NCBI RefSeq assembly: GCF_050920415.1
Contig: NZ_CP169309.1
Direction: 5' to 3' (one strand)
Origin: Escherichia coli
GTDB lineage: Bacteria > Pseudomonadota > Gammaproteobacteria > Enterobacterales > Enterobacteriaceae
DNA length: 64,000 nucleotides
Both the position numbers and the translations under genes were made by a program. Below are positions 12,694 to 47,696 of this stretch, one piece after another; position 1 is the stretch's first letter, and the number at the start of each line of letters is the position of its first letter. Below the pieces are notes generated by a model. It made no database searches, was not told the origin of the DNA, and saw nothing but the letters and a program-made list of their open reading frames with translations.

Positions 12694-12815
12694 CTTTCCC
12701 TTAGAGTCCTTTTTCAAATATACTGTGAAGACTTCGGCCTTCGTAGTGGGATTTGAAAAAATCCTTCTGGAAAGTGCTCCAGACCGCAGTTGCGGTTATA
12801 GGGTTCAGTTATATA

Positions 12816-12885: not shown

Positions 12886-12899
12886 TCTTGGGGGTGGGC

Positions 12900-13352: not shown

Positions 13353-13379
13353 TAGTCTGGATGAGGTGAAAAGCCCGCG

Positions 13380-14867
<1,488 letters not shown>

Positions 14868-14891
14868 TAAACTGTAGCAGGAAGGAACAGC

Positions 14892-17564
14892 ATGACAGAT
14901 GTAACGATTAAAACGCTGGCCGCAGAGCGACAGACCTCCGTGGAACGCCTGGTACAGCAATTTGCTGATGCAGGTATCCGGAAGTCTGCTGACGACTCTG
15001 TGTCCGCACAAGAGAAACAGACTTTAATTGACCACCTGAATCAGAAAAATTCAGGCCCGGACAAATTAACGCTGCAACGTAAAACCCGCAGCACCCTTAA
15101 CATTCCTGGTACCGGTGGAAAAAGCAAATCGGTACAAATCGAAGTCCGCAAGAAACGCACCTTTGTGAAACGCGATCCGCAAGAGGCTGAACGCCTTGCT
15201 GCGGAAGAGCAGGCGCAGCGTGAAGCGGAAGAGCAAGCCCGTCGTGAGGCAGAAGAATCGGCCAAACGCGAGGCGCAACAAAAAGCTGAACGTGAGGCCG
15301 CAGAACAAGCTAAGCGTGAAGCCGCTGAACAAGCGAAACGTGAAGCTGCGGAAAAAGACAAAGTGAGCAATCAACAAGACGATATGACTAAAAACGCCCA
15401 GGCTGAAAAAGCCCGCCGTGAGCAGGAAGCTGCAGAGCTCAAGCGTAAAGCTGAAGAAGAAGCGCGTCGTAAACTCGAAGAAGAAGCACGTCGCGTTGCT
15501 GAAGAAGCACGTCGTATGGCGGAAGAAAACAAATGGACTGATAACGCGGAACCGACTGAAGATTCCAGCGATTATCACGTTACTACTTCTCAACATGCTC
15601 GCCAGGCAGAAGACGAAAGCGATCGTGAAGTCGAAGGCGGCCGTGGCCGTGGTCGTAACGCGAAAGCAGCGCGTCCGAAGAAAGGCAACAAACACTCTGA
15701 ATCAAAAGCTGATCGTGAAGAAGCACGCGCAGCAGTACGTGGCGGTAAAGGCGGAAAACGTAAAGGTTCTTCGCTGCAGCAAGGCTTCCAGAAGCCAGCT
15801 CAGGCCGTTAACCGTGACGTTGTGATTGGCGAAACCATCACCGTTGGTGAACTGGCGAACAAGATGGCGGTTAAAGGTTCTCAGGTCATCAAAGCGATGA
15901 TGAAACTGGGCGCAATGGCAACCATCAACCAGGTTATCGATCAGGAAACCGCACAGCTGGTTGCTGAAGAGATGGGCCACAAGGTTATCCTGCGTCGTGA
16001 AAACGAGCTGGAAGAAGCGGTAATGAGCGACCGTGACACAGGTGCTGCGGCTGAACCGCGCGCGCCGGTTGTGACCATCATGGGTCACGTTGACCACGGT
16101 AAAACCTCTTTGCTGGACTACATTCGTTCAACGAAAGTGGCCTCTGGCGAAGCGGGCGGCATTACCCAGCACATTGGTGCATACCACGTTGAAACTGAAA
16201 ACGGCATGATCACCTTCCTGGACACCCCGGGGCACGCCGCGTTTACTTCAATGCGTGCACGTGGTGCGCAGGCAACGGACATCGTAGTCCTGGTTGTTGC
16301 TGCCGACGACGGCGTAATGCCGCAGACCATCGAAGCAATTCAGCACGCGAAAGCGGCAGGCGTGCCGGTTGTGGTTGCAGTGAACAAGATCGACAAACCA
16401 GAAGCCGATCCAGATCGCGTTAAGAACGAACTCTCCCAGTACGGCATCCTGCCGGAAGAGTGGGGCGGTGAAAGCCAGTTCGTACACGTGTCTGCGAAAG
16501 CAGGTACCGGTATCGATGAACTGCTGGACGCTATCCTGTTGCAGGCAGAAGTTCTGGAACTGAAAGCGGTACGTAAAGGTATGGCGAGCGGTGCGGTTAT
16601 CGAATCCTTCCTCGATAAAGGTCGTGGTCCGGTTGCTACCGTTCTGGTACGTGAAGGTACTCTGCACAAGGGCGACATCGTTCTGTGTGGTTTCGAATAC
16701 GGTCGTGTTCGCGCAATGCGTAACGAAATGGGTCAGGAAGTGCTGGAAGCAGGTCCGTCCATTCCAGTTGAAATCCTTGGCTTGTCCGGTGTTCCGGCAG
16801 CGGGTGACGAAGTTACCGTAGTGCGTGACGAGAAGAAAGCACGTGAAGTTGCACTGTATCGTCAGGGCAAATTCCGTGAAGTTAAACTGGCACGTCAGCA
16901 GAAATCGAAACTCGAGAACATGTTCGCTAACATGACCGAAGGCGAAGTTCACGAAGTGAACATCGTTCTGAAGGCAGACGTTCAGGGTTCCGTGGAAGCG
17001 ATCTCCGACTCCTTGCTGAAACTGTCTACTGACGAAGTTAAAGTGAAGATCATCGGTTCTGGCGTAGGTGGTATCACCGAAACCGACGCTACCCTGGCTG
17101 CGGCGTCCAACGCCATCCTGGTTGGTTTCAACGTACGTGCTGATGCCTCTGCACGTAAAGTGATTGAAGCGGAAAGCCTGGATCTGCGTTACTACTCCGT
17201 CATCTATAACCTGATCGACGAAGTGAAAGCGGCGATGAGCGGTATGCTGTCTCCGGAACTGAAACAGCAGATTATCGGTCTGGCGGAAGTTCGTGATGTG
17301 TTCAAATCACCGAAATTTGGTGCCATCGCAGGTTGTATGGTTACTGAAGGTGTGGTTAAACGTCACAATCCGATCCGCGTTCTGCGCGACAACGTGGTTA
17401 TCTACGAAGGCGAGCTGGAGTCCCTGCGCCGCTTCAAAGATGACGTTAACGAAGTCCGTAACGGTATGGAATGTGGTATCGGCGTTAAGAACTACAACGA
17501 CGTCCGCACTGGCGATGTGATCGAAGTATTCGAAATCATCGAGATCCAACGTACCATCGCTTAA
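14892..17564 (+). CDS. infB: translation initiation factor IF-2
   Basis: 890-aa ORF with charged repeat-rich N-terminal region and GTPase domain ([21 protein letters not shown]). Confidence 0.95.
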
Positions 17565-30150: not shown

Positions 30151-30647
30151 TTCGAGTAGAAATTCCCATTGATGCGCCGGGTATTGATGCCCTGCTGCGT
30201 CGTTCATTCGAAAGCGATGCGGAAGCGAAGCTGGTTCACGATCTGCGTGAAGATGGCTTTCTGACGCTGGGGCTGGTGGCGACAGATGACGAAGGTCAGG
30301 TCATTGGCTATGTGGCATTTAGTCCGGTTGATGTGCAGGGCGAAGACCTGCAATGGGTCGGCATGGCACCGCTGGCGGTAGATGAAAAATACCGTGGACA
30401 GGGGCTGGCACGCCAACTGGTCTATGAAGGACTCGATTCGCTTAATGAGTTCGGCTATGCCGCAGTGGTGACGCTGGGCGATCCGGCGCTGTACAGCCGT
30501 TTCGGCTTTGAACTGGCGGCGCATCACGATCTGCGTTGTCGTTGGCCGGGCACTGAAAGCGCCTTCCAGGTACATCGTTTAGCGGATGATGCGCTGAACG
30601 GCGTAACCGGTCTGGTTGAGTATCACGAACACTTCAATCGCTTTTAA
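30144..30647 (+). CDS. yhbS: GNAT-family N-acetyltransferase YhbS
   Basis: 167-aa ORF with acetyl-CoA binding motif [10 protein letters not shown]. Confidence 0.85.
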
Positions 30648-30936
30648 TCTCCGGGGTTTGCAGGCTGCTCAACAGTTCTGCAAACCCTGCGCCTTCCGCT
30701 ACCAGACGCTCTTTTTGCCGTTTGGTCAGTTGCTTGATGCGATATTCCATCCGTAACGCCAGCGAGCGGTCGCCCACTGGCGCGGAAAACGCCAGCGTCA
30801 GTTCTCCTTTCCCGCGCAGTGCTTTCGCCCCTTTTCCGCTTTGGTGCTGCTGATAGCGGCGTTCAACATCCGTGGTGATCCCGGTATAAAGCTTATTGTC
30901 GGCGGTACGGATCAAGTAAAGAAACCAGGGTGTCAT
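30634..30936 (-). CDS. yhbQ: GIY-YIG domain protein YhbQ
   Basis: 100 aa from [31 protein letters not shown]. Confidence 0.85.
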
Positions 30937-30986
30937 CGTCTGCGTCACATGTTAAGGTCAGGCCCACAGTATAAAAGAGAACAGCT

Positions 30987-31409
30987 ATGGAAACACTCAC
31001 CGCCATCAGCCGTTGGCTGGCAAAACAACATGTTGTCACCTGGTGTGTGCAGCAGGAAGGGGAATTGTGGTGCGCCAATGCCTTTTATCTTTTTGATGCA
31101 CAGAAAGTTGCCTTCTACATTTTGACGGAGGAAAAAACGCGTCACGCGCAGATGAGTGGGCCGCAGGCGGCAGTTGCTGGAACGGTAAACGGTCAGCCGA
31201 AAACGGTAGCGTTAATTCGCGGTGTGCAGTTTAAAGGTGAGATCCGCAGACTGGAAGGTGAGGAAAGCGACCTTGCGCGCAAGGCGTATAATCGTCGCTT
31301 TCCGGTTGCCAGAATGCTGTCGGCGCCGGTGTGGGAAATCCGGCTTGATGAAATCAAATTCACTGACAACACGCTGGGCTTTGGTAAAAAAATGATTTGG
31401 CTACGTAGC

Positions 31410-31430
<21 letters not shown>
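30987..31430 (+). CDS. yhbP: pyridoxamine 5'-phosphate oxidase-like protein YhbP
   Basis: 147-aa [37 protein letters not shown]... Confidence 0.85.
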
Positions 31431-31966
<536 letters not shown>

Positions 31967-31967
31967 T

Positions 31968-32018
<51 letters not shown>

Positions 32019-32045
32019 GGGAGCGCAAGGCAGACAATTCTGTAA

Positions 32046-32691
<646 letters not shown>

Positions 32692-32763
32692 TTATTCCCA
32701 AGAATTGATAGTGAGTGTAATATTCACGCGCTCAATTATCATAACTAATTCCTGGGGAATGCT

Positions 32764-33804
32764 ATGACTGGTCAGTCTTCATCTCAGGCGGCAACGCCCA
32801 TTCAGTGGTGGAAACCCGCGCTTTTCTTTCTCGTTGTCATTGCTGGTCTCTGGTATGTGAAATGGCAACCTTACTACGGCAAAGCGTTTACCGCCGCCGA
32901 AACTCACAACATCGGTAAATCAATACTCTCACAGGCGGATGCTAATCCGTGGCAGGCGGCGTTGGATTACGCGATGATCTATTTCCTCGCGGTATGGAAA
33001 GCGGCGGTGCTGGGAGTGATCCTCGGGTCGTTGATTCAGGTGCTGATCCCTCGTGACTGGCTGCTGCGTACGCTTGGGCAATCGCGCTTTCGCGGCACGC
33101 TGCTGGGAACGCTGTTTTCGCTGCCGGGCATGATGTGTACTTGCTGTGCGGCACCGGTCGCGGCGGGGATGCGTCGCCAACAGGTGTCGATGGGCGGGGC
33201 GCTGGCATTCTGGATGGGCAATCCGTTGTTAAATCCGGCGACGCTGGTGTTTATGGGTTTTGTCCTCGGCTGGGGCTTTGCGGCGATTCGTCTGGTGGCG
33301 GGACTGGTGATGGTGTTGCTGATTGCGACCCTGGTGCAAAAATGGGTGCGTGAAACACCGCAAACACAGGCACCGGTCGAAATTGATATGCCGGAAGTGC
33401 AGGGCGGATTCTTTAGCCGCTGGGGTAGGGCGCTATGGACGCTTTTCTGGAGTACGATCCCGGTATATATCCTTGCCGTACTGGCGTTGGGTGCCGCTCG
33501 CGTCTGGTTATTCCCCCATGCCGATGGTGCTGTCGATAACAGCCTGATGTGGGTGATTGCGATGGCGGTAGCGGGATGCTTGTTTGTCATTCCCACGGCA
33601 GCAGAAATTCCGATTGTACAAACGATGATGCTGGCAGGTATGGGAACCGCTCCGGCGCTGGCATTGTTGATGACGCTTCCTGCTGTAAGTTTGCCGTCGC
33701 TGATAATGTTGCGTAAAGCGTTCCCGGCGAAAGCCTTATGGCTGACGGGTGCGATGGTGGCGGTGTCTGGTGTGATTGTCGGCGGGCTGGCGCTGTTGTT
33801 CTGA
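32764..33804 (+). CDS. yraQ: permease-family inner membrane protein YraQ
   Basis: 346-aa polytopic membrane ORF with CxxCC motif (MCTCCAAPVAAGM). Confidence 0.85.
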   Translation: MTGQSSSQAATPIQWWKPALFFLVVIAGLWYVKWQPYYGKAFTAAETHNIGKSILSQADANPWQAALDYAMIYFLAVWKAAVLGVILGSLIQVLIPRDWLLRTLGQSRFRGTLLGTLFSLPGMMCTCCAAPVAAGMRRQQVSMGGALAFWMGNPLLNPATLVFMGFVLGWGFAAIRLVAGLVMVLLIATLVQKWVRETPQTQAPVEIDMPEVQGGFFSRWGRALWTLFWSTIPVYILAVLALGAARVWLFPHADGAVDNSLMWVIAMAVAGCLFVIPTAAEIPIVQTMMLAGMGTAPALALLMTLPAVSLPSLIMLRKAFPAKALWLTGAMVAVSGVIVGGLALLF

Positions 33805-33816
33805 TTTGAGGGAAAA

Positions 33817-33998
33817 CATGTCGGATGCGGCGTAAACGCCTTATCCGACCTACGGTTTGCATCGTTGCAGGCCTGATAAGACGCGGCAAGCGTCGCATCA
33901 GGCAACGGCAGTCGGATGCGGCGCAGGCGCCTTATCCGACCTACGGTTTGTGTCGTGTAGGCCTGATAAGACGCGGCAAGCGTCGCATCAGGCATTAC
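33817..33998. repeat. BIME/REP cluster (about 4 REP units)
   Basis: Alternating gtcggatgcggcg...cgccttatccgac and gcctgataagacgcggcaagcgtcgcatcaggc palindromes. Confidence 0.9.
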
Positions 33999-34007
33999 AA
34001 GGTGCTG

Positions 34008-34583
34008 CTATTTAATAAACGTAAACGCTGTGGTTACACGTTTTACGCCGCTCACCCGACTGGCAATATCTGCCGCCGCTTTCGCTTCACGTTCAGTCAC
34101 CAGCCCCATCAGGAACACTTCACCGTTTTCGGTGGTCACTTTCACGTTGGACGATTTCACCAGGTCGCTGGTTAAGAGCTGCGAACGCACTTTGGTGGTG
34201 ATCCACGTATCGTTAGACGCTTCGCCCAGACCAATCGGCTGGCCCTGACGAATCTCGTTATACACTTCGTTGGCACCGTCTACGCCCATAGCAATCTGTT
34301 TGGCGCGAGCCGAAAGTTCAGCGTTTGGTGACTGCCCAACCAGCAGCACTTTGCCCTGATAGGCCGTTACATTAATGCGTGCTTCTTTCTTGATTTGTTC
34401 GTCTTTCGACAATGCGCTGTTCACGCGCACTTCCAGGGTTCCATCATCCACCTGGGTGCCGACACTGCGTGGGTCAGTTGCGGCTTTTGTACCCACAGCC
34501 GCGGTGCCCACTACGGCGGCAGCAACGCAACCTTGCAACAGCAGTGCGGAAATAAGGACTGCGATTGGCGATAATGCCTTCAT
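34008..34583 (-). CDS. dolP: BON-domain outer membrane lipoprotein DolP (YraP)
   Basis: 191-aa ORF with signal peptide and lipobox LLQGC. Confidence 0.9.
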   Translation of the reverse strand: MKALSPIAVLISALLLQGCVAAAVVGTAAVGTKAATDPRSVGTQVDDGTLEVRVNSALSKDEQIKKEARINVTAYQGKVLLVGQSPNAELSARAKQIAMGVDGANEVYNEIRQGQPIGLGEASNDTWITTKVRSQLLTSDLVKSSNVKVTTENGEVFLMGLVTEREAKAAADIASRVSGVKRVTTAFTFIK

Positions 34584-34592
34584 GTATTCTCC

Positions 34593-35183
34593 TTAAACAT
34601 CCTGGTGAGGGAAAAGCGTGTTATCGATCAGATCGCACAAGCAATTTACCGTCAGCATATGCATTTCCTGAATGCGAGCACTACGATGCGAAGGAATGCG
34701 GATCTCCACATCCTGTGGCCCTAACAACCCTGCAAGTTCACCGCCGTCATAGCCAGTCAATGCCACAATGGTCATATCACGCGTAACAGCAGCTTCTACT
34801 GCTTTTACGATATCGCGGCTGTTGCCACGGGTGGAAATGGCTAACAACACATCTCCCGCATGCCCCAGCGCCCGCACTTGTTTTGCATACACTTCATCAT
34901 GTAAGCGATCGTTGGCAATCGCCGTTAAGACAACATTATCAGTATTTAGTGCAATGGCAGGTAAGCTGGGCCGCTCCGTTTCGAATCGGTTGATCATGCT
35001 GGCAGCAAAATGCTGTGCATTGGCAGCGGAAGTTCCATTACCACAACAGAGGATTTTGTTGCCATTGAGCAGAGACTGAACCAGCGTCATGGCTGCACGG
35101 GAGATGGCATCCGGAAGCGCCTCTGCTGCCGCAATTTGAGTTTGAATGCTTTCAGTGAAGCAAGCTTTAATTCGTTCTTGCAC
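34593..35183 (-). CDS. diaA: DnaA initiator-associating protein DiaA (SIS domain)
   Basis: 196-aa [53 protein letters not shown]... Confidence 0.92.
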
Positions 35184-35202
35184 GCTAATCCTTAAACCTT
35201 AA

Positions 35203-35598
35203 TTATGAGTGGTCATTAAAGGCATCCTTAATCCACTCAACTTCATTCCCGGTGAAGGCTACCACATCGAACCGGCAATCCACAGTATCAAAACTCCCAT
35301 TATGACGCGCGAGCCACAAGCGGGCAGTCTGTAATAATTTGTGTTGTTTGCTGCGGGTCACACTGGCTGCCGCACCACCGTAAAGGGCTGAGCGGCGGTA
35401 ACGCACCTCGACAAAAACGGTGGTCCTGCCTTCACGCATTATCAGATCGATCTCGCCGCCACGCTCGTTCACGTTAGCGGCGACAAACCGCAGTCCTTTG
35501 CTCTCCAGCCAGCGACGCGCTTGTGCCTCCCACGCATCGCCGGTCTGTTTAGTGGTTAACTGGCGGGGACTACCTGACCTTGTTGGTACTGTAGCCAT
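35203..35598 (-). CDS. yraN: UPF0102 family protein YraN
   Basis: 131-aa ORF; 5' end overlaps the 3' end of lpoA. Confidence 0.85.
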
Positions 35599-37592
35599 GA
35601 TAACTTCCTGTTAATTACGCAATCCGGGTTAGCCGTCAGACTTCCGGTATTACCGTTGATTTCGAAACCCTGAACCTGGCGCATCTGTGAGAAATGATTT
35701 GCCAACGACCAGGCATCAACGCCCATCGCATACATGCGAGCCAGCGAATAATCGTTATTCACCGCACTGAGCGCCTGCTGCATTAATGGCAGATTACCGC
35801 CCGCCAGCATCGGGATTTCGCTATATTGCAAACCTTCCATTTCCAGACGGAAATCCGGACCCGCGGTGCCTTGTGCGCTTCGGGAGCTTGCGTACAGCGT
35901 TGCACCGCTCTGGCTACCGTTACGCATGGCGATCATCGGTTTGATAAAAGCGATTTCACCCGGCGTTGCCACAATGTACACCGCATCGACACGACCGCCA
36001 TTATTGGTGAACTGGTCATCGGTTGGCGTGGTTTGCAGCGTTGGATTGTTGGTCGTCATGCCGGAGTCGGTTGTTTCTCTGGGAGTAATCGGGCTACCGG
36101 TTAAAGCGATACCAGAACCACCGTTAACTCCCGCGCGTAATTCGCTGGTGGAACCAAATTTTTGTTGCAGAACGGTGCCGCCGCCCAGCTTCTGCCACTC
36201 TTGCGCAAACGCATTGGCTACGCGATCGCCCAGCGAACTGCGAGGGATCAGCACCAGTGGCGCTTGTTTACCCTGGTCACGAATATGACGCGCTGCATCG
36301 CGCGCTTCGTCTTCCGGTGAAAGCGCGAAGTAACAAATATTGACGCGGTTTTCGATATTTTCTGGCTGGTTCAGTGCCAGCACGTTCAGCGGGGTGTTGC
36401 TTTTCAGTAACTCTTCAACGTTATTTTTCAGCAACGGACCGACCACAATACTCGCGCCATCCTGCTGAACCTGGTTGAGGATCTGGCTAAGCGGTTGTGA
36501 TGAGGTATCATAAATTTTCAGCTCTGCGGATGGATTCGCGGGGGCGCTTACCGCCGCAGTGTTTGCCGCCGGGGCGCTTACAGGCACTGGTTGAGCCGCG
36601 GTTTCTTCGCCTGTCAGATCGCTAACCGAGGCTTGTGCCGGGCTGGCAACGCCGTCAACAGTTTGCTGCTGGGGTTGTTCTGCAACGTCTGCGATTGGTG
36701 CGGCAGTTGCCTGTGCCGCCACTGGCTGAGTGCCGATATTTTTCGCCGCTTCAAAGCCTTGCTGAATAGTGCGGCCAAATACCGCTGCCTGGCCATTCAG
36801 TGGCAACAGCAGGGCTATTTTGTTGGTTGACGCTGGTTTAAATGCTTTTACGTTTACCAACTGCGTAGGCAGCATTTTCGCGCCCGGGTTGTTCGGATAA
36901 CGTTTCTGCCAGTCGGCGATCCCAGCTTTCATCATGTCGGGATCGTTACGGTTATCAAACCAGACGCGCTGCAGATCAAGCCAGCCTTGCAGAATATTTT
37001 CGTCGGCGTTGATCACCAGCGTATTCGCCTGGTCCTGAGTCATGGAGGAGAGTGCCTGCCATGTAGCATCAATATTCTGTTGCTTTTCTTTCGCGCCGAG
37101 CAGGGGTTCCTGAGCAATTAAGGCGCGCAGTAAATCAATGGAAGGACGCCCCTGACTGGCATCGATTTTTGCCTGCCAGTAACGCGCCTGCTGGTTTTGA
37201 TCTAAATCGGCAGGTGTGATTTTCGCCAGCAGGGTTTGTGCGCCAGCAAAATCTTTCTGCGCCAGCTTAATTTCTACTGCCAGAAGAGTTTTCTCGCGAC
37301 GCTGGTAATCGTTCAGTTCCTGCGGCAGCTGGTTAAACAGCTCCACCGCCTGCCCGGTTTTACCTTCTTTCACCAGTGCACGAATGGCGAGTAATTGCCA
37401 GTTGATCCTGGTATCATCAGCGCTTTGCTGCATCTGCTGAAGATAAAAGGCAGAATCAGCCTGCGCCGTGCCCTGCATATAGGCAGTGGACTGATCGGGA
37501 GTATGGGTGCCACAACCGGCGAAAATCAGGGCTGCCAGAACAACAGGCAGACAACGCGCGGCTTTCAAACGAGAAAATGTTGAGGGTACCAT
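35556..37592 (-). CDS. lpoA: penicillin-binding protein 1A activator LpoA
   Basis: 678 aa from [27 protein letters not shown] (lipobox); TPR-like N-terminal domain, Q/P/A-rich linker. Confidence 0.92.
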
Positions 37593-37656
37593 AATGTATC
37601 CAGTGATATTTTTTTTACGCAATGCTCAATATTAAATCGGCAATACGGACGACACA

Positions 37657-38520
37657 ATGAAACAACACCAATCGGCGGATAATTCTCAGGGCCAGCTTTA
37701 CATTGTACCGACGCCAATCGGCAATCTGGCAGATATCACCCAGCGTGCGTTGGAGGTTTTACAGGCCGTTGATCTGATTGCCGCCGAGGATACGCGTCAT
37801 ACCGGTTTACTGCTGCAACATTTTGGAATTAACGCCAGGTTGTTCGCCTTGCACGACCATAACGAACAACAGAAAGCCGAAACGTTACTGGCGAAGCTGC
37901 AGGAAGGGCAAAACATTGCGCTGGTGTCCGATGCCGGAACGCCACTGATTAACGATCCCGGCTATCATCTGGTGCGTACCTGCCGAGAAGCGGGGATTCG
38001 CGTGGTGCCACTACCGGGGCCGTGTGCTGCTATCACTGCATTAAGTGCTGCGGGTTTACCATCCGATCGTTTTTGTTATGAAGGCTTTTTACCTGCCAAA
38101 TCAAAAGGCCGCCGTGATGCGCTAAAAGCCATTGAAGCGGAGCCGCGCACGCTGATTTTTTATGAATCCACCCACCGTCTGTTAGATAGCCTGGAAGATA
38201 TCGTTGCTGTGCTGGGTGAGTCCCGTTACGTGGTGCTGGCGCGTGAGCTCACCAAAACCTGGGAAACCATTCACGGCGCGCCCGTTGGCGAGCTGCTGGC
38301 GTGGGTAAAAGAAGATGAAAACCGTCGCAAAGGCGAAATGGTGCTGATTGTTGAAGGCCATAAAGCGCAGGAAGAAGACTTACCCGCCGATGCCCTGCGC
38401 ACGCTGGCGCTGTTGCAGGCAGAACTGCCGCTGAAAAAAGCGGCGGCGCTGGCAGCAGAAATTCACGGCGTGAAGAAAAATGCGCTGTATAAGTATGCGC
38501 TGGAACAGCAGGGGGAGTGA
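37657..38520 (+). CDS. rsmI: 16S rRNA C1402 2'-O-methyltransferase RsmI
   Basis: 287-aa ORF with tetrapyrrole-methylase fold motifs ([10 protein letters not shown]). Confidence 0.92.
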
Positions 38521-38569
38521 TTACAGGCGTCGCAGCAAGAATAGAGCTGCAACGCCTACACCGGGCGAT

Positions 38570-39337
38570 TTAACGACGACACATCTCATCAATCATGCAT
38601 GTGAAATAGTTATGCAGCCATAAAAACGAAGCCGGGATAGCGGTAGAGACTTTAGCCGTGAGAAAACGTTCTGTCGCATCCTGCTTTCCTTCGCCAGTTA
38701 TCAGTAACAAAACTTCGCGGGCATTGAGAATATCCTTCAGGCCTAAAGTGATCCCACGAGTCACGGGACGGCCCGCGGTTTTTAACATCTCATGTTGTTG
38801 CGTTCTGGTATCAAGCTGGCTGATATGGCTTGCTGGTTGCAGACTTTCTCCCGGTTCGTTCAGCCCAAGATGGCCGTTTTTTCCCAATCCGAGAACGCAT
38901 AAATCCAGACCGCCTTTGCGCGCAATCAGGTTCGTTACCCGTTCGCACTCTGTCTCATTTATCTCTTCAGAGCGAAAGCTGATGAGCTGGTCTTCACGTA
39001 GCCCCAGCGGCTGCACGATATGCTGTTGAAGGAAAGTTTCGCAGGTGCCAGGCATTGTTAATGGCAGATCCACCCATTCGTCGAGCTTCACGAAGGTTAG
39101 TTGGCTGACATCAACCTGCTGCTGGTGGATTTTTTCTACCAGATAATGATACGTCAGTAATGGTGTGGCTCCGGTCGCCAGGCAAATCACGGCATCCGGT
39201 TTGCTACGGATCACGGCCAATAAATATTCGCTGGCACGTTCACTTAACGCCGTATAGTTTTCAACTTGTTGAAGGGTTTGCACAGGATGAAATTCCTTTA
39301 GTAAAGAGGCACCACCAGACGCAGTGCCTCGTTCCAT
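38570..39337 (-). CDS. agaI: galactosamine-6-phosphate deaminase/isomerase AgaI (NagB family)
   Basis: 255-aa ORF, NagB-like; true start may be a few codons downstream. Confidence 0.85.
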   Translation of the reverse strand: MERGTASGGASLLKEFHPVQTLQQVENYTALSERASEYLLAVIRSKPDAVICLATGATPLLTYHYLVEKIHQQQVDVSQLTFVKLDEWVDLPLTMPGTCETFLQQHIVQPLGLREDQLISFRSEEINETECERVTNLIARKGGLDLCVLGLGKNGHLGLNEPGESLQPASHISQLDTRTQQHEMLKTAGRPVTRGITLGLKDILNAREVLLLITGEGKQDATERFLTAKVSTAIPASFLWLHNYFTCMIDEMCRR

Positions 39338-40129
39338 TTACAAAATGCCGAATGCGGAACAAACAATAGAGAGCACAAAAGTCACGCCGATTAACAGCAC
39401 CGGATGCGCTTTTTTCACCCGCAGGAAGTAATACATCAACAGGGTGTAGGCCATCGGTAAAATGTTCGGGAAGACTTTATCGAAGAAATCCTGCTGCAGC
39501 GCGACGCTGTGGGTACTGTCGATGGCAAACGATGTCACCACGTTAATATGCACATACGAAGCGATCAGCCCGCCGATTACCGTGATCCCGAGGATGGTTG
39601 CCGAACGAGCAATCATCTGCGAGTTCTCTCGCACTTTATCGATCGCCTTCACGCCGACTGAATAACCGACGTGGGTCCAGCCGACGCGCAGGAAGAAGAT
39701 AAGCAGGTAAACGGCGAAAAATAGAATCGGCCCCAGCAGGTTTCCCTGACTGGCAAACGATGAGCAAATCCCCGCCATAATCGGCAACAAAGTAAACCAG
39801 AAAATCGCATCACCAATCCCGGCGATTGGGCCAAACAGCGCCACTTTGAGGCCTTTAATGGTGTCGCGGTTTTCTCCTTTTTCTTCCATCGAAATTAATA
39901 ACCCCATCAGGAATCCGACCAGATTCGGGTGAGTATTAATAAATTCGAGGTTATCTTTCATCGCCGCGCTTAGGCCCGGTTTGTCGTCCTTATAAATCTT
40001 TTTCAGGAGCGGCAACATCGCCCAGGTAAAACCGCCCGCCTGCATCCTTTCGTAGTTAAAGCTCGCTTGCAGGAGTGACGAACGAAAGCCCAGACGGGTG
40101 ATATCTTTTTTACTGATTTCAGATCCCAT
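39338..40129 (-). CDS. agaD: PTS mannose-family IID component (galactosamine-specific)
   Basis: 263 aa from MGSEISKKDITRLGFRSSLLQASFNYERMQA. Confidence 0.88.
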   Translation of the reverse strand: MGSEISKKDITRLGFRSSLLQASFNYERMQAGGFTWAMLPLLKKIYKDDKPGLSAAMKDNLEFINTHPNLVGFLMGLLISMEEKGENRDTIKGLKVALFGPIAGIGDAIFWFTLLPIMAGICSSFASQGNLLGPILFFAVYLLIFFLRVGWTHVGYSVGVKAIDKVRENSQMIARSATILGITVIGGLIASYVHINVVTSFAIDSTHSVALQQDFFDKVFPNILPMAYTLLMYYFLRVKKAHPVLLIGVTFVLSIVCSAFGIL

Positions 40130-40922
40130 TGCTGTAGTCCTCTTCTTCATTTTTACTGGCAACGGGCTGCGGTTGCGCTTGCTGCCGGGATTTCGCATTG
40201 AAAAACTCATACACCGCAAAGCCTGCGCCCAGTACGGCAACCGGCAACAGGTTGCTGACCTGGATGTAGCAAACAAACAGGAAACCGGCGATCAGGTAAG
40301 GGATATATTGCGCTTTGAACATTACGCGCAGCAGCAAGCCAAAACCAACGGCAGGCAGAATGCCGCCAGCCACTTCAAAGCCGTGGGTCAGCCAGGCGGG
40401 CATCGCTTTCACCAGCGCCTGCATCGCCCCTTGCGCCAGGTAAGTACAGAGGAAAGCAATCACCGCATACGCTGAAGCGACGATGAGCATCGTTGTCCAG
40501 TTAAGTCGGGAAAACGCTGCTGTATCCGCCTCTTTCGCACAATTATCAGCTTTGGTCATAAATAATGAGAATGCCGAATAGAAGAACAGAATGACGTACT
40601 GCATTAACAAACTAAACGGCAGACCAAGGCCAATTGCCGTTTTGGCATCGACGCCCGTAGACCATGCAATGACGGTAGTCATCAGACCCGCCATAATTGG
40701 GTTGGGCGGCTGTACACCACCTGCGGGGGTTAATCCGGCGAAAGCCAGTTCTGTTAGGCCACCGGTAATTAAGCCAGTCTGAATATCACCGAGAATAGCA
40801 CCTGTAAGGGTACAAACGATTATCGGGCGGAATAAAAATAAGGCTTCCAGCCAAAAATCAATCCCCAGAACGAAAACTAACGCCGCCAGGGATAATCCCT
40901 GAATTAGGGTTATTTCATGCAT
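40119..40922 (-). CDS. agaC: PTS mannose-family IIC component (galactosamine-specific)
   Basis: 267-aa membrane ORF MHEITLIQGLSLAALVFVLG... Confidence 0.88.
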   Translation of the reverse strand: MHEITLIQGLSLAALVFVLGIDFWLEALFLFRPIIVCTLTGAILGDIQTGLITGGLTELAFAGLTPAGGVQPPNPIMAGLMTTVIAWSTGVDAKTAIGLGLPFSLLMQYVILFFYSAFSLFMTKADNCAKEADTAAFSRLNWTTMLIVASAYAVIAFLCTYLAQGAMQALVKAMPAWLTHGFEVAGGILPAVGFGLLLRVMFKAQYIPYLIAGFLFVCYIQVSNLLPVAVLGAGFAVYEFFNAKSRQQAQPQPVASKNEEEDYSNGI

Positions 40923-40960
40923 TTTTATTACCTCAAACCAGTATTAAGGCGATTTTAAAT

Positions 40961-41437
40961 TTAGTCAGGGATTTGTTCTTTTTGATCGCCGGGGACGTCC
41001 TGAATAAAAATATTCACACCGCGTTGTTTAATAAAGCGTAAGTCCGTGAGATCCTGGTCATCGACATAAACTTTACTGCTGATTTGCTTTTTACCTTCCG
41101 AGAAATGCATATTGCCGACGTTGACATCTTTCAGGTCAATGCCACCTTCTATCAATTTACGTACCGTTTGTGGCGTACGGCAAATCAGGAAGATCTTCTG
41201 ATGCGGTGCAGCTTTGCCGATGACGTTAATGGTTTTTTCGATAGTAAAGAAACGAATGCCAAAGCCGTAGGTTTCCGCGGTAATACCCATTAATTTCTGT
41301 TGAATATCATCGTTAGCGACAACATCATCCACGACCACCAGCAGATTTGCACCGATGGTAGATGTCCAGGTCACACCAACCTGACCGTGAACCAGACGGT
41401 TATCAATACGGGTTAAGAGAATATTTGGACTGCTCAT
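40961..41437 (-). CDS. agaB: PTS mannose-family IIB component
   Basis: 158-aa ORF with phosphohistidine motif RIDNRLVHGQV. Confidence 0.88.
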   Translation of the reverse strand: MSSPNILLTRIDNRLVHGQVGVTWTSTIGANLLVVVDDVVANDDIQQKLMGITAETYGFGIRFFTIEKTINVIGKAAPHQKIFLICRTPQTVRKLIEGGIDLKDVNVGNMHFSEGKKQISSKVYVDDQDLTDLRFIKQRGVNIFIQDVPGDQKEQIPD

Positions 41438-41603
41438 TGTGTAATCCTCACCATAAAGTTGAATAATATAATTTTTTTAAATATATTATTGTTGCGATAT
41501 TTTACTGATGTATTTATTAAGGTTTAGTTATCTCCTTTACCATTAAGGCACTCCCCGATATTAATCGGGAAGTACATTGGGATAAATCATAAAAAACTAA
41601 TGA

Positions 41604-42476
<873 letters not shown>

Positions 42477-43631
42477 TTATGCCTGCCACGGATGAATGAT
42501 TACGCCTTGCACCACGCGGTTAACGGTGCCGCTGGCTGATGGGGTATCCGGCGTATTGCCCATGTGCAGCGATTGCATCAGTGCAAATGTCTGGGCGTAC
42601 ATCAGGAAGCAAAATGCCTGCTCAACGTCGATAAAGTGACGGGACGGCGGCAGGATGATATGTGGACCGGCGGTAATAACGTCGTTGCTTTCCGCGGCGA
42701 TAGCGATTACGCGCATTGCCTGGTTGTCACGGCGGAGTTCTGCCAGCAGATCAAGATCATACTGACGCGTATAGGGGTGGCTGGAGACAAACACCACCAC
42801 CAGCGTTTCGTCATCGACCAGTGATTTAGGCCCATGACGGAATCCGGTCGGGGAATCATAAAAGGCCGCCAGTTTACCCGCCGTTAGTTCAAGCACTTTC
42901 AGCGCCGACTCGCGTGCTGCACCCTGTAATCCACCACTGCCGAGATAAACGATCCGTTTCCACGGTGCGTAACCAAACACACCTTCGCTGAAATCGCCCA
43001 GTGAGGTCAGGATCGCCTGGCAACGATCCGCTACGTCGCGGAAGGTCTGGCTATTGATTGTCTCAGGTGCGAAAACCGCGAGGCAGCTGGCCATCATAGT
43101 GGTAATGCTGCTTGTCATCGCAAAGCCGCGATCGTGCGTTTCTGCGGGCATCAGCAGGGCAAACGCGTTGTCGCTGTTGATCGCGTTTTGGTAAAGAGCG
43201 CCCGCTTCGTTGCAGGTGATCGGCAGGTGATAGCATTCCGGTACAAACTGATTCGCCAGTTCCACGGCGGCGACGCTTTCCGGGCTGTTGCCGGATCGAC
43301 CGAAGGAGATCATCAGCAGCGGATGAGCTGGATTCAGGTAGTCCATCGGATTGGTGACCAGATCGGTGGTTGGTACGGCGCTGAAGTTTTTACCGGTATG
43401 GCTGGCGAGCCACGGCGCGATGATGTCACCGATAAATGCCGAGGTTCCGGCTCCGGTCAGGATGATCCGCAGATTCTCTTTGCGCAGTAACGGTTCAAGG
43501 AAGTTATTGAGCGCGGAACGTAGCGCGTCGATGTTGGTGAGTGAACGGATCCATGCGCGAGGCTGATGGCGGATCTCTTCTTCAGTCCATGTGCCGGTGG
43601 TGGCGGCCGCTGGGGTGTAATTTTCTGGCAT
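42477..43631 (-). CDS. agaS: SIS-domain sugar isomerase/deaminase AgaS
   Basis: 384-aa ORF with tandem SIS domains. Confidence 0.9.
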   Translation of the reverse strand: MPENYTPAAATTGTWTEEEIRHQPRAWIRSLTNIDALRSALNNFLEPLLRKENLRIILTGAGTSAFIGDIIAPWLASHTGKNFSAVPTTDLVTNPMDYLNPAHPLLMISFGRSGNSPESVAAVELANQFVPECYHLPITCNEAGALYQNAINSDNAFALLMPAETHDRGFAMTSSITTMMASCLAVFAPETINSQTFRDVADRCQAILTSLGDFSEGVFGYAPWKRIVYLGSGGLQGAARESALKVLELTAGKLAAFYDSPTGFRHGPKSLVDDETLVVVFVSSHPYTRQYDLDLLAELRRDNQAMRVIAIAAESNDVITAGPHIILPPSRHFIDVEQAFCFLMYAQTFALMQSLHMGNTPDTPSASGTVNRVVQGVIIHPWQA

Positions 43632-43679
43632 AACTCAATCCTTAGTCTGATGAACTTGACTTCCGGCATTGCAGGTTTC

Positions 43680-43800
43680 GCTTGCCTTTCGTTTCATTTC
43701 ACTTGGTGATTCGTTTCGTTGATTAAAATCTATAGAAAAGAAATCGAAAGTTCAATGGAGAAAAAAGAAATAAAACGAAATTTGTGATCGTTGAAAGAAA
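43680..43800 (-). promoter_or_regulatory. agaS promoter region with AgaR (DeoR-family) operator repeats
   Basis: CTTTCGTTTCATTTCACTTGG plus further TTCGTTTCGTT and AAACGAAAT repeats, matching the published AgaR operator pattern TTTCRTTTYRTTTY. Confidence 0.6.
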
Positions 43801-43982
43801 AGACAAGGGAAGATTAAAGGATTGCGTGATGACGTCGCTATGTGTACCGATTGCTGGAAGCGGCGTACCGTTAGAGCGGATAAGACGCGCCAGCGTCGCA
43901 TTCGACACCACTGCACAGATTAAAACGAAAGAAAAAGAAAGGCCTTACGGGGGAAGTGAAGGCCCAATAAAGGAGCAAATCA

Positions 43983-45116
43983 TCAAAACGAAGCTAATTG
44001 ACCCTGAATCCAGATTTGTTGCACATGCAGTCCGCTATCCAGCGCAACGACGCTGGCGCGTTTGCCCGGTTTAAGTGATCCCAAAACACCATCAACACCC
44101 AGCATTCGCGCCGGATGCAGCGACGCCATATGGATGGCTTCCGCTGGCGTTACGCCCGTCAGCTCGACCATATTGCGAACAGCCGCATCAACAGACAGCG
44201 TACTGCCCGCCAGTCCACCGGACGCGGTACGGACAACGCCGTCGTGCATCTGCACCTCTTCACCACATAACGTATAGCGACCATCCGGCATCCCGGCTGC
44301 CTGCATCGCGTCGGTGATGAGCACGATTCTCTCTTTCGCACAGCAACAACACAGCGACATCGCCGCCGGATGTACATGATGACCATCGGCTATCAGTTCC
44401 AGCCAGGCGCGCTTGTCCGTTAATCCTGCGCCAACCATTCCCGGTTCGCGGTGATGTAAACCTGTCATCCCGTTATAGCAATGCACCAGGCCGTCGGCAC
44501 CAGCGTCAAACGCGGCGCGGGTTTGTTGCCAGGTTGCTGCGCTATGTCCCAGCATTACCCGCACGTTCTGCTGTTTAAGATGACGAATGGCTTGTAACGC
44601 GCCCGTTTTTTCCGGTGCCAGCGCCACCACGCGCAAGGTATGCCGTGAAACAGCAATCAATTGATCCAGCTCGGCAATTTCCAGCTCGCGAAACAGCTCC
44701 GGCGGATGTGCGCCTTTATTCTGCGGCGTGAAGTACGGTCCTTCGAGATAACTCCCCAGCACTTGCGCACCAGGTCCACCGCGCTGGCAGCGTAGAGCAA
44801 TACGTTCCAGCGCCGCATGAATGGTATTAAGCGGCGCGGTTACGGTAGTCGGCAACCAACTGCCGACACCTTCCCGTGCCTTGTGCATTGCCAGCTTGTC
44901 GAGCACATCCGGCGCGTCATCCATAACATCAACGCCCGCACCACCGTGTACATGGGTATCGATATAAGCGGGGCAGAGCAGTTCCGCATCGCGTTCAGCC
45001 ACGCCCACTGGAATCGGTTCGATTGCTGCAATTACACCGTCAGCAATATGCAACTGATGATCATCAAGCCAGCCCTCCTCAGTCAGCAGCCTTCTGGCGC
45101 GCAGAACGTGTGTCAT
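43983..45116 (-). CDS. agaA: N-acetylgalactosamine-6-phosphate deacetylase AgaA (full length)
   Basis: 377 aa from MTHVLRARRLL; NagA-like amidohydrolase. Confidence 0.9.
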   Translation of the reverse strand: MTHVLRARRLLTEEGWLDDHQLHIADGVIAAIEPIPVGVAERDAELLCPAYIDTHVHGGAGVDVMDDAPDVLDKLAMHKAREGVGSWLPTTVTAPLNTIHAALERIALRCQRGGPGAQVLGSYLEGPYFTPQNKGAHPPELFRELEIAELDQLIAVSRHTLRVVALAPEKTGALQAIRHLKQQNVRVMLGHSAATWQQTRAAFDAGADGLVHCYNGMTGLHHREPGMVGAGLTDKRAWLELIADGHHVHPAAMSLCCCCAKERIVLITDAMQAAGMPDGRYTLCGEEVQMHDGVVRTASGGLAGSTLSVDAAVRNMVELTGVTPAEAIHMASLHPARMLGVDGVLGSLKPGKRASVVALDSGLHVQQIWIQGQLASF

Positions 45117-45547
45117 ATTCCTTCCTCGACCGGACATTCTTCATGGCAGCGGCCTAACTCGTCCACCAGACTGGTCAGCCCACGGTGTCCACTCTCCAGC
45201 GCCTGTACACGGAATTCTTCACCGCTTAACCCTTCGCGCTCCAGCACCATTTCCAGTAACAGTTGCAAATTGGTGCCGGTGATCACTTCATAGCCCGGTT
45301 TTTGCATCGCCAGCGTTGAAGCCACGCGAAACGGTGTGCCGCCCAGCAAATCTGTCAGAAAAACAATGCCGTCTTCACAATCCAGTTTGGCAATGGCTTC
45401 TTCAAGCTGCGATGTAAGCAGCGCAGTGCTTGAGGTTTCCGGAAAATCAATGGCGATAAACTGCGACTGCTCGCCGAGGATTTGCTTCATTGCTTTTTCC
45501 ATGCCGCTGGCAAATCCGCCATGCCCTGTCAAAATAATACTTAACAT
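45113..45547 (-). CDS. agaF: PTS mannose-family IIA component
   Basis: 144-aa ORF MLSIILTGHGGFASGMEKAMKQILGEQ... Confidence 0.88.
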   Translation of the reverse strand: MLSIILTGHGGFASGMEKAMKQILGEQSQFIAIDFPETSSTALLTSQLEEAIAKLDCEDGIVFLTDLLGGTPFRVASTLAMQKPGYEVITGTNLQLLLEMVLEREGLSGEEFRVQALESGHRGLTSLVDELGRCHEECPVEEGI

Positions 45548-45564
45548 CTAATACCTCATTGTAT

Positions 45565-46449
45565 TTAAAGGAAATGACAGAATTTACCGACGATGCCAAG
45601 AACCACGGTAACCGCAATCAGGCGCAGCGGACTCCAGCCGCGGCGTACCAGCCAGAACATGGTCAGGGTGTAGACCAGCGGTAAGAAGGCAGGCATCAGT
45701 TTGTCGATAACGTCAGCCTGCAGCTTAACCACTGCGTCGCCCGCCGTGATTTCCAGCGTGGTGCTTAAACGAACATAGGTTGCCACCAGCGCGCCGATCA
45801 CCGTCATCCCAACGATAGACGCTGCATGGCCGACTTTTTTGGTATTCGCTTTAATGAGTGGGATCGCCGCCACGCCCATGCGGTAAGCATAATGCGCCAG
45901 ACCAAAACGCAGCCCCAGGTGTACCACGTTGAACAGCACAATAAAGACGACTGCGCCAAGAATAGAGCCTTGCAATGCCAGACTGGCACCAATCCCGCCA
46001 CAAATCGGCAGTAACGTTAGCCAGAACATGGCATCGCCAATCCCGCCGAGCGGCGCACCGACGGCAATTTTGGTGCTCTGAATACTGTTAACGTCCTGCT
46101 TAGAACGCTCCATCGCGAGGATAATGCCAATAACAAACGTCACCAGAAATGGATGGGTATTGAAGAAACCCATATGTCCCTTCATGGCGCGCGCCAGGTC
46201 GCGTTTATTAGTGTGGATCTTTTTCAGAGCAGGCAGCAGACCGTACAACCAGCCGGAAGCCTGCATACGCTCGTAGTTAAAAGACGCTTGTAACAGCATG
46301 GAACGCCAGGCGACGCGGTTGATATCTTTTTTTGTTAGCTCCGCGCCAATGCTCTGATCTTCGTATACGTTTTCATTGACGCCTGTCAGTAGTGTCTCTT
46401 CATTTTCGCTGACGTTCGGCAGGGTGGTTTGATTAGATGCCATCTTCAA
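45565..46449 (-). CDS. agaE: PTS mannose-family IID component (N-acetylgalactosamine-specific)
   Basis: about 292-aa ORF, paralogous to agaD. Confidence 0.88.
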   Translation of the reverse strand: MKMASNQTTLPNVSENEETLLTGVNENVYEDQSIGAELTKKDINRVAWRSMLLQASFNYERMQASGWLYGLLPALKKIHTNKRDLARAMKGHMGFFNTHPFLVTFVIGIILAMERSKQDVNSIQSTKIAVGAPLGGIGDAMFWLTLLPICGGIGASLALQGSILGAVVFIVLFNVVHLGLRFGLAHYAYRMGVAAIPLIKANTKKVGHAASIVGMTVIGALVATYVRLSTTLEITAGDAVVKLQADVIDKLMPAFLPLVYTLTMFWLVRRGWSPLRLIAVTVVLGIVGKFCHFL

Positions 46450-47212
46450 ATTCCTCTTTCTGTGCCGCAGGTTGAGTCGGTTCAGGAGATTTACGCAGCA
46501 GGTCGATCAGCGCCATCGCCAGCGCGGCGGCAGCAATAGCCAGCACCGGTAACTTGAGCCAGGCGGCGGCAACGAAGCCCAGGATGAAGTAGGGGATATA
46601 GACGTTTTTCATCATGATTTTCAGCAGCACGGCAAAACCGATTGCTGGCATGATGCCGCCCGCGACGCCAAGGCCGTCGATTAACCGTTGCGGCAGGACA
46701 TCAATGATGGTTTTTGCATGCTCCGCGCCGAAGTAGATAGGCAGGAAAGCGCAGAGAAAATAGAACGTGCCGAGTGCCAGCAATGCCAGATAGTTCACGC
46801 GTTCAATGCCGCGAGTATCGGCGTTCTCCGCCATCCGGTCGCAGCGGGACATCACGCCAGACATCACCGAGAACAGGAAGGTAATCCCCATCTGTACTGC
46901 GACAGCGAAAGGTACGGCGACACCGACCGCGACATCCGGTTTCACACCAGTAGTAATGGCAAATGCCGTGCCGACGATAGTTCCGATAATCACGTTAGGC
47001 GGCTGTGCGCCCGCCAGTGGTGCCAGCCCCATCCACACCAGTTCCAGCGTACCGCCGGTTAAAATACCGGTATGCAGATCGCCAAGCACCAACCCAACTA
47101 ACGGGCCGAGGACCACCGGGCGGTGCATATGGGTCAAGCCGTTAAACATATCCAGGCCAGCGATAAAGGCGATAATGCCCAACGCAAATGCCTGCAACAG
47201 ACTGATTTCCAT
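46433..47212 (-). CDS. agaW: PTS mannose-family IIC component (N-acetylgalactosamine-specific), full length
   Basis: 259-aa membrane ORF, paralogous to agaC. Confidence 0.88.
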   Translation of the reverse strand: MEISLLQAFALGIIAFIAGLDMFNGLTHMHRPVVLGPLVGLVLGDLHTGILTGGTLELVWMGLAPLAGAQPPNVIIGTIVGTAFAITTGVKPDVAVGVAVPFAVAVQMGITFLFSVMSGVMSRCDRMAENADTRGIERVNYLALLALGTFYFLCAFLPIYFGAEHAKTIIDVLPQRLIDGLGVAGGIMPAIGFAVLLKIMMKNVYIPYFILGFVAAAWLKLPVLAIAAAALAMALIDLLRKSPEPTQPAAQKEEFEDGI

Positions 47213-47222
47213 AATGAATCCC

Positions 47223-47696
47223 TCAAAGTAATTTAAAGAGGTCCACAGCAGGTTCTGTCGGAACGCCCTGAACGAAGCATTCCACCCCAGCGGCTTTCAG
47301 GCCGTTAAATGCCGCGATATCGCTCGCATCCACAGAAACCGTTTTGGCAATTTGCTGCTTGCCATTGGCATAGTGCATGTTGCCAACGTTAATGCGACTC
47401 ACCGGGACCCCACCTTTAACCAGCGTCAGGAAATCGGCAGGTGTTTTACAAACCAGCAGAATTTTCTGCCGATCGGCGGCGCGGTGGATGTTGTCGATCA
47501 CTTTTTGCAGCGTCCAGAAACGTACGGCGATCCCTTCTGCCAGTACCATTTCCATCAGGTTTTGTTGTACCGGATCTTCGGCAACCTCGTCATTGGCTAC
47601 CAGCACCAGATTTGCCCCCGCGAATCCGACCCACTGAACGCCGACCTGACCGTGAATCAAGCGTTCATCAATCCGGCTTAAAACAATATTTGGCAT
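47223..47696 (-). CDS. agaV: PTS mannose-family IIB component
   Basis: 157 aa from MPNIVLSRIDERLIHGQV. Confidence 0.88.
   Translation of the reverse strand: MPNIVLSRIDERLIHGQVGVQWVGFAGANLVLVANDEVAEDPVQQNLMEMVLAEGIAVRFWTLQKVIDNIHRAADRQKILLVCKTPADFLTLVKGGVPVSRINVGNMHYANGKQQIAKTVSVDASDIAAFNGLKAAGVECFVQGVPTEPAVDLFKLL

Follow-up and report, generated by a model that had tools for sequence, protein, structure and literature searches.

In Escherichia coli K-12, the operon for the cryptic Yra chaperone-usher fimbriae, yraHIJK, lies between the core genes rsmI and agaI, whereas in the 64-kb stretch of E. coli DNA analysed in this work (the window) the two genes converge directly across a short spacer containing an imperfect hairpin. 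Two questions are raised by this locus: whether the fimbrial operon has been precisely lost from the site or the site is an ancestral, empty one, and whether the hairpin could serve as a bidirectional transcription terminator, as proposed in the first-pass annotation of the sequence.

In earlier work, yra was regarded as accessory and linked to A/B1 isolates (PMC4128348, PMC11184843). Its expression was seen only in A/B1-type urinary isolates (PMC4128348); it served as one of the accessory adhesins that define clusters (PMC11184843), and a comparison of the fimbrial loci of laboratory strains lists it as well (PMC3032704). The main text of Wurpel et al. 2013 (PMC3559732) carries no Yra-specific statement, the distribution being given in the figures.

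Anatomy of the rsmI-agaI junction

The window is identical to positions 577020-641019 of E. coli MFDS1022581 (NZ_CP169399.1), for which the RefSeq annotation gives the same ORF calls. The features of the locus are collected in Table 1. The 287-aa ORF has an equivalog-level match to NF011570, 16S rRNA (cytidine1402-2'-O)-methyltransferase (E = 8e-190), and the 255-aa ORF matches NF007291, galactosamine-6-phosphate isomerase (E = 4.5e-141); AgaD and AgaC are also supported by NCBIfam matches. The TGA stop codon of rsmI occupies positions 38518-38520 and the TAA stop codon of agaI, on the minus strand, positions 38570-38572, leaving a spacer of exactly 49 bp and confirming the direct convergence at about this distance that had been noted at first. 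Homologous spacers were found in E. albertii, Escherichia sp. E1V33, and E. coli E69, NC101 and other E. coli strains. Transcription coming from the aga/kba cluster upstream of agaI would stop at the hairpin.

Table 1. Coordinates of the features at and around the rsmI-agaI junction in the window
Feature	Position	Strand	Description	Basis
lpoA	35556..37592	-	core gene, left flank, divergent from rsmI	tblastn, 97.3% amino acid identity to K-12 LpoA; RefSeq annotation
rsmI	37657..38520	+	16S rRNA C1402 2'-O-methyltransferase, 287 aa, ends in QQGE	NF011570; annotation
spacer	38521..38569		49 bp, convergent; empty allele of the rsmI-agaI insertion site	sequence; homologues in other Escherichia
stem-loop	38523..38559		hairpin within the spacer	folding; pair counts
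divergent stretch	38515..38612		no blastn-detectable K-12 homology	blastn; side-by-side sequences
agaI	38570..39337	-	galactosamine-6-phosphate isomerase, 255 aa, ends in FTCMIDEMCRR	NF007291
remainder of aga/kba	39338..47696	-	agaD, agaC, agaB, kbaY, agaS, nagA/agaA, agaF, agaE, agaW, agaV	annotation

The position of yraHIJK in K-12, as given in the first-pass annotation, proved to be correct: the K-12 strain C600, checked for the direct agaI-rsmI adjacency that had been named beforehand as speaking against it, has the gene order rsmI, yraK, yraJ, yraI, yraH, agaI. A tblastn search with the K-12 Yra proteins (E<=1e-3) detected no Yra homologue in the whole 64-kb window, from which the usher, chaperone and subunit genes (yraJ, yraI and yraH/K) are thus all absent, and blastn against K-12 detected no island-derived sequence at the junction. 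The junction is therefore clean, as had been claimed.

In the blastn comparison with K-12, homology breaks at window positions 38514/38515 and 38612/38613. The 98 bp between the breaks (38515-38612) stand against 5483 bp in K-12 (yraK-J-I-H and their flanks). Besides the spacer, they include the two final codons of rsmI and the ~14 final codons of agaI. Both proteins end differently in the two strains: RsmI ends in QQGE in the window and in QQG in K-12, and AgaI ends in WLHNYFTCMIDEMCRR in the window and in WLHSNFICLINT in K-12 (in short, DEMCRR and FICLINT). Residual codon-by-codon similarity between the window and K-12 runs on into the divergent stretch. Since this similarity persists and the breaks are located inside the coding 3' ends, the two arrangements are alternative haplotypes and not the products of a simple indel between identical flanks. 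The GC content is 45% in the yra island, 27% in the yraH-agaI intergenic region, and 51% in the window; the island looks foreign and AT-rich.

Polarity of the yra polymorphism

The outgroup survey took one genome per species and then the genomic context of AgaI homologues at a greater distance; the species recovered by the scan did not include E. fergusonii, E. marmotae, or E. ruysiae. In Citrobacter farmeri, Lelliottia amnigena, and Klebsiella sp. I138, the agaD-agaI genes converge directly on rsmI-lpoA-yraN-diaA-dolP, the spacer measuring 52, 39, and 85 bp, respectively, and direct adjacency of agaI and rsmI was also observed in Trabulsiella odontotermitis, E. albertii, Escherichia sp. E1V33, and E. 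coli E69. The E. albertii locus is built as in the window: RsmI ends in QQGE, a 49-bp spacer contains the same hairpin, and AgaI ends in DEMCRR. The E. albertii spacer is identical to that of the window at 42 of 49 positions and to that of E. coli ZH063 at 48 of 49.

The window thus shares its gene adjacency with outgroups, has orthologues of its spacer and gene ends in a sister species, and retains none of the K-12-type flanks expected of a deletion scar (RsmI ending in QQG, AgaI ending in CLINT, and the AT-rich region upstream of yraH). Because a deletion from the K-12 form could not recreate ends and a spacer of the E. albertii type, we conclude that the window very probably represents the ancestral state, without an insert, of a small integration hotspot bounded by the core genes rsmI and agaI. 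We take the direction of the polymorphism, with yra as the gain, to be shown by these comparisons, as are the anatomy of the junction and the frequencies given below.

The most probable history is as follows. The common ancestor that Escherichia shares with other Enterobacteriaceae already had rsmI and agaI in direct convergence across a short hairpin-bearing spacer. The yraHIJK operon entered at a later time, in the genus Escherichia, between agaI and the hairpin next to rsmI, and the last codons of agaI were rewritten. The empty and occupied alleles have coexisted since then, and were most likely exchanged between lineages via homologous recombination in the flanking core genes.

Distribution and other occupants of the site

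The contiguous empty junction is present in 1835 of 5426 complete E. coli genomes, or ~34% (1821 with a shorter query). DNA of the K-12 yra island was detected in 3523 of the 5426 genomes (~65%), 3264 of which contain at least 80% of the island. The difference between empty and yra-bearing junctions is a common, already recognised gene-content polymorphism and not a deletion. The site is empty, for example, in NC101, a strain of phylogroup B2, and occupied in K-12, B, O157:H7, and O55:H7; what can be said of phylogroups is based on these named strains and on the literature cited above.

Several other inserts were identified. In XJ6-3 (a state seen in 13 genomes), an 851-bp cassette of a RelE/ParE toxin and an HTH antitoxin replaces the hairpin; in GF4-3, an MBL-fold hydrolase and a LysR regulator are found at the site; in O145:H28 RM12581 and N96, the MBL hydrolase and LysR genes, together with a malX/malY-like module, take the place of agaBCDI. 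Edges of 66 bp and ~122 bp are common to the toxin-antitoxin and MBL/LysR islands. Inserts other than yra occur at the site in rare genomes. Since several different inserts share one site, the rsmI-agaI junction is an ordinary multi-allelic integration hotspot.

Age of the alleles and possible recombination at the junction

In E. whittamii, yraHIJK is found at the same site, its products being 83-90% identical to those of K-12 at the amino acid level, and in Escherichia sp. MOD1-EC7003 the site contains a much more divergent four-gene fimbrial operon (53-65% amino acid identity). Divergence between K-12 and E. whittamii at fourfold-degenerate sites is 43-45% for the yra genes vs 20-32% for the flanking core genes. 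This makes the occupied allele old as well, and the two states have long existed side by side within Escherichia. As E. whittamii and MOD1-EC7003 have a yra or yra-like operon at the site, yra may have been gained before the radiation of E. coli and then replaced in some lineages, as an alternative to vertical retention of the empty allele. In addition, the E. albertii spacer is closer to that of E. coli (98%) than are its flanks (91-94%), and its likeness could reflect interspecies exchange instead of shared ancestry of that exact sequence.

Possible signs of recombination were also observed at the junction of the window itself. The N96 genome, the closest relative elsewhere in the window, is 99.9% identical to it at 5-8 kb and 98.7% identical over 31521-38521, that is, up to one base past the rsmI stop codon; beyond position 38521 its content differs from that of the window until kbaY. 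Mismatches between the two are tightly clustered in the last 320 bp of rsmI. The spacer allele of the window is unique among the 5426 genomes, with at most 88% identity to other empty alleles. These observations allow a reading in which the lineage once had an insert and later took up both an ancestral-type empty allele and a divergent aga region through homologous recombination with an unsampled donor: the near relative N96 has the MBL/LysR/malX island at this site, its homology to the window ceases 1 nt past the rsmI stop codon, the rsmI 3' end bears the clustered mismatches, and the spacer has no close match. The direction of the exchange is ambiguous, however, N96 being equally possible as the recombinant, and no donor closer than 94-96% was found; we regard such secondary emptiness as possible, if somewhat doubtful.

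A bolder and improbable reading is that the empty, Yra-type, and other alleles form a trans-species balanced polymorphism with the stem-loop as a selected insulator. If so, the alleles would be old on both sides, and E. coli, E. albertii, E. whittamii, and the cryptic clades would have them in common; any incoming cassette would have to bring or keep a stem-loop after rsmI; and long-term selection that depends on the niche would act on whether Yra fimbriae are present.

Of the two options that the first-pass annotation had left side by side, the ancestral empty site is upheld by the outgroup adjacency and the E. albertii allele. The other one, precise loss of the 5.5-kb operon from a K-12-like yra-bearing ancestor by clean excision or short-repeat recombination, would account for a junction without ORF remnants in a species where the yra-bearing state is in the majority (and also occurs in E. 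whittamii), but is extremely improbable given that both gene ends and the spacer are unlike those of K-12, match those of E. albertii and cannot be regenerated by deletion, that four further genera have the two genes next to each other in this way, and that the genuine decay of yra actually seen in E. coli consists of IS1/IS3 insertions and partial deletions.

The stem-loop between rsmI and agaI

The hairpin consists of the core arms 38526-38536 (ggcgtcgcagc) and 38546-38556 (gctgcaacgcc), separated by a 9-nt loop (38537-38545); the stem comprises up to 14 pairs, 38523-38536 with 38546-38559, and its core arms contain one C.A mismatch on the plus strand that corresponds to a G.U pair on the minus strand. 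RNA folding yields -18.7 kcal/mol (z -2.8) for the plus strand and -26.2 kcal/mol (z -4.3) for the minus strand, both beyond chance. The 11-14 bp stem with its 9-nt loop has the shape of an intrinsic-terminator stem (GC-rich, at least 5 bp, short loop). Neither strand has a T-run in the 8 nt downstream of the stem or an A-tract in front of it: after the 14-pair stem the plus strand reads ACCGGGCG and the minus strand AATCACTC. A terminator consensus scan returned 0 sites, and a search of positions 38200-38900 against Rfam at permissive thresholds yielded no family, all matches having E>6 and lying far below the gathering thresholds.

REP elements have a consensus of the type GCCGGATG...CATCCGGC. 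When the two were compared by eye only, no resemblance of the window hairpin (GGCGTCGCAGC...GCTGCAACGCC) to it was apparent. Membership in the REP/BIME family was rejected on copy number, a 151-bp query giving a median of 1 match per genome, as for a single-copy sequence. Among the 120 stretches picked up in a metagenome scan with the 14-mer GAGTGATTACAGGC, a pattern too short for a collection of that kind, there was no rsmI-agaI junction.

Within Escherichia, the 14-pair stem is well preserved: across nine distinct empty-site alleles, 90.5% of the pairs are kept on the plus strand and 96.0% on the minus strand, vs 17-53% in slid controls. One compensatory change, from G-C to A-U, was identified in E69. 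Covariation over the nine alleles is not significant relative to shuffles, nor is the better pairing of the minus (agaI-sense) strand, with 4 vs 2 substitution events. The divergence of the spacer (9.75% vs 10-12% at third-codon positions of the flanks) reveals no extra constraint on it, and within the spacer stem positions diverge like non-stem positions.

The better argument for a function of the hairpin is positional recurrence. A stem-loop is located just past rsmI in every genus and allele examined, despite turnover of the sequence, with z-scores for the rsmI-sense strand of -2.7 to -5.5 across taxa and alleles, apart from E. whittamii (-1.1, indistinguishable from shuffles). Between the stop codons, Citrobacter has the stem-loop ACACGCTGCAG-AAATA-CTGCAGCGTGT (z -4.8 and -5.5) and Lelliottia has GCCGGGCAA...TTGCCCGGC (z -2.8 and -3.2); that of Klebsiella is of the Lelliottia type, with folding energies of -34.8 and -29.2 kcal/mol taken without a shuffle control. 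All occupied Escherichia alleles have a stem-loop directly after the rsmI stop codon. K-12 and E. whittamii keep the empty-site core GCGTTGC...GCAACGC at this place, followed by a T-run, which suggests that yra entered between agaI and a hairpin that already existed at the 3' end of rsmI.

This recurrence suggests that the stem-loop may be a barrier at, or a stabiliser of, transcript 3' ends, and a non-canonical 3'-end role is plausible. Most likely, the converging transcripts, from rsmI and from the aga operon, have their 3' ends defined and shielded by the stem-loop, which would block 3'-to-5' exonucleases and/or act as a partial, possibly Rho-assisted, terminator, and would limit read-through into the opposing gene. 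Such a role would resemble that of U-tract-less REP hairpins, which were reported to be partly Rho-dependent terminators and mRNA stabilisers in 3'UTRs and, when located between convergent genes, to be correlated with higher expression of both (bioRxiv 10.64898/2026.03.23.713779).

Two other explanations of the hairpin were considered. The stem-loop could have no function of its own and be a neutral relic, such as a decayed REP-like palindrome, which persists through low divergence. The equal rates of spacer and third-codon positions and of stem and non-stem positions agree with this, as do the absence of significant covariation and the Trabulsiella spacer, which contains at the same place a pair of palindromes that look by eye to be of the REP type (the sole REP-like spacer). 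A relic is nevertheless unlikely in view of the non-homologous, equally strong stem-loops at the same position in Citrobacter, Lelliottia, Klebsiella, and the occupied Escherichia alleles; moreover, the window hairpin is single-copy per genome and hence not of the REP family, and wobble-preserving transitions predominate alongside the one compensatory change. The canonical bidirectional intrinsic terminator of the first-pass annotation is very improbable: the imperfect hairpin that it described is there, with the quoted arms, a GC-rich 11-14 bp stem between convergent stop codons, and a relative in yra-bearing alleles that is followed by TTCTTTT, but the empty allele has neither the T-run nor the flanking A-tract of that class and no terminator-like site was detected in it.

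Implications

Beyond correct annotation the importance of these results is slight, as the difference is already known in kind. Strains without Yra fimbriae, B2 examples such as NC101 included, have undergone no detectable operon loss at this site and keep the original arrangement, and for evolutionary and adhesin-repertoire analyses the direction is set, with yra as a gain. The rsmI-agaI site provides a compact, well-bounded example of an insertion hotspot that lacks an integrase and has at least five alleles; its stem-loop, which is conserved between convergent genes in position and not in sequence, could be used to test the role of U-tract-less hairpins at mRNA 3' ends.

Comparison with known systems

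Like bidirectional intrinsic terminators, the window stem-loop is stable and centred between converging stop codons; unlike them, it has no U-tract with a complementary A-tract, and a T-run on the rsmI side is present in the K-12-type allele. With REP elements and other U-tract-less 3'UTR hairpins it shares a GC-rich imperfect palindrome, a 3' intergenic location between convergent genes, and the lack of a U-tract, whereas it differs from REP elements in being single-copy and in having no apparent likeness to their consensus, as judged by eye. With respect to the Yra fimbriae of K-12, the operon that fills the rsmI-agaI site in K-12, O157:H7, and ~65% of the complete genomes is wholly absent from the window, which very probably presents the pre-insertion state.

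Integration hotspots that lack integrases and lie between fixed core genes were described in E. coli, and spread of their contents via homologous recombination in the flanks was proposed (Touchon et al. 2009, PMC2617782). The rsmI-agaI site is similar to them in two respects: it has five occupancy states (empty, yraHIJK, the divergent fimbrial operon, the toxin-antitoxin pair, and MBL-LysR with or without malX/malY); and the loci examined have no annotated tRNA gene or integrase at their edges. In the flanking core genes, clustered mismatches, an abrupt loss of homology vs N96, and a locally divergent allele may be signs of recombination. It differs from them in being small, with a cargo of 0-6 kb, and in that most genomes contain one and the same old insert, yra, so that the site is not a fast-turnover set of rare genes.

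Inserts at the rsmI/agaI site

In E. coli XJ6-3, the site between rsmI and agaI is occupied by an 851-bp toxin-antitoxin cassette, which encodes a toxin of the RelE/ParE family together with an HTH antitoxin. The cassette begins directly 3' of the rsmI stop codon and replaces the hairpin; in full length it is present in 13 of the 5426 complete E. coli genomes searched. Other strains carry a different cargo at this position: an MBL-fold metallo-hydrolase and a LysR regulator in GF4-3, and the same pair of functions together with a malX/malY-like PTS module, which stands in place of agaBCDI, in both O145:H28 RM12581 and N96, a near relative of the window strain. The MBL/LysR inserts and the toxin-antitoxin cassette have common edges (66 bp on the left and ~122 bp on the right), so one cargo has been exchanged for another between shared borders.

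Features at and around the rsmI/agaI site (L handles denote comparison loci of other genomes, each in its own coordinates)
Genome (locus)	Coordinates	Feature
Window	5000-8000	stretch close to ordinary E. coli
Window	30500-41500	divergent region
Window	38208-38235, 38410-38481	mismatch clusters, rsmI 3' end
Window	38521-38562	site equivalent to the XJ6-3 cassette
Window	38526-38556	Escherichia stem
Window	38570-47696	aga/kba cluster
Window	39290-39337	agaI 5' end
XJ6-3 (L135)	3158-4008	toxin-antitoxin cassette
GF4-3 (L138)	4700-7122	MBL/LysR insert
O145:H28 RM12581 (L137)	7001-12200	MBL/LysR and PTS module
N96 (L136)	7001-12200	MBL/LysR and PTS module
S. enterica CP040601.1 (L139)	6470-7720	orphan agaI, RsmI fragment
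Trabulsiella odontotermitis (L009)	9700-9810	agaI/rsmI spacer
Citrobacter farmeri (L141)	7721-7772	stem
Escherichia sp. MOD1-EC7003 (L008)	10137-15149	chaperone-usher operon

Sequence divergence around the site

Across the region surrounding the site, the window shares only 94-97% identity with K-12 and with NC101, an E. coli strain with the empty site; these two strains are 97.5% identical to each other there. Window 5000-8000 shows 97.8-99.9% identity to ordinary E. coli, and the 151 bp around the spacer reach at most 92.7% identity to any other complete genome. The region is a locally divergent allele, probably recombinant and derived from an unsampled donor. At the 3' end of rsmI, mismatches to N96, which is otherwise 98.7% identical from 31521 to 38521, form tight, synonymous-looking clusters; such clusters are typical of short recombination mosaics beside a hotspot.

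The junction in other genera

Between the stem of Citrobacter farmeri (CGCTGCAG...CTGCAGCG) and that of Escherichia (CGTTGCAG...CTGCAACG), the difference resembles a compensatory T-A to C-G change, which hints that the two hairpins are homologous across genera. In the Trabulsiella spacer, the Escherichia hairpin is replaced by two inverted palindromes (GCCGGATAAG... and ...TTATCCGGC) that appear REP-like by eye. Salmonella enterica possesses an orphan agaI (72% amino acid identity) adjoining a 58-aa C-terminal fragment of RsmI, with a galactitol (gat) operon upstream and Rhs/T6SS genes adjacent; this locus has the appearance of what remains of the agaI-rsmI junction after a rearrangement.

The aga/kba cluster and the agaI start

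The aga/kba cluster of the window is complete (agaV, W, E, F, nagA/agaA, agaS, kbaY, agaB, C, D and I). In K-12, agaW and agaA are affected by a deletion, and the strain is unable to utilise N-acetylgalactosamine. The NCBIfam AgaI profile starts at residue 17 of the 255-aa agaI ORF, and AgaI proteins of other genera are 236-239 aa long; the start codon annotated in E. coli may be placed ~16 codons too far 5', or the Escherichia protein may have an N-terminal extension.

A divergent fimbrial operon

In Escherichia sp. MOD1-EC7003, the rsmI/agaI site holds a four-gene chaperone-usher operon, the products of which share only 53-65% amino acid identity with YraH, YraI, YraJ and YraK. This operon is either a very old yra allele or a related operon acquired independently.
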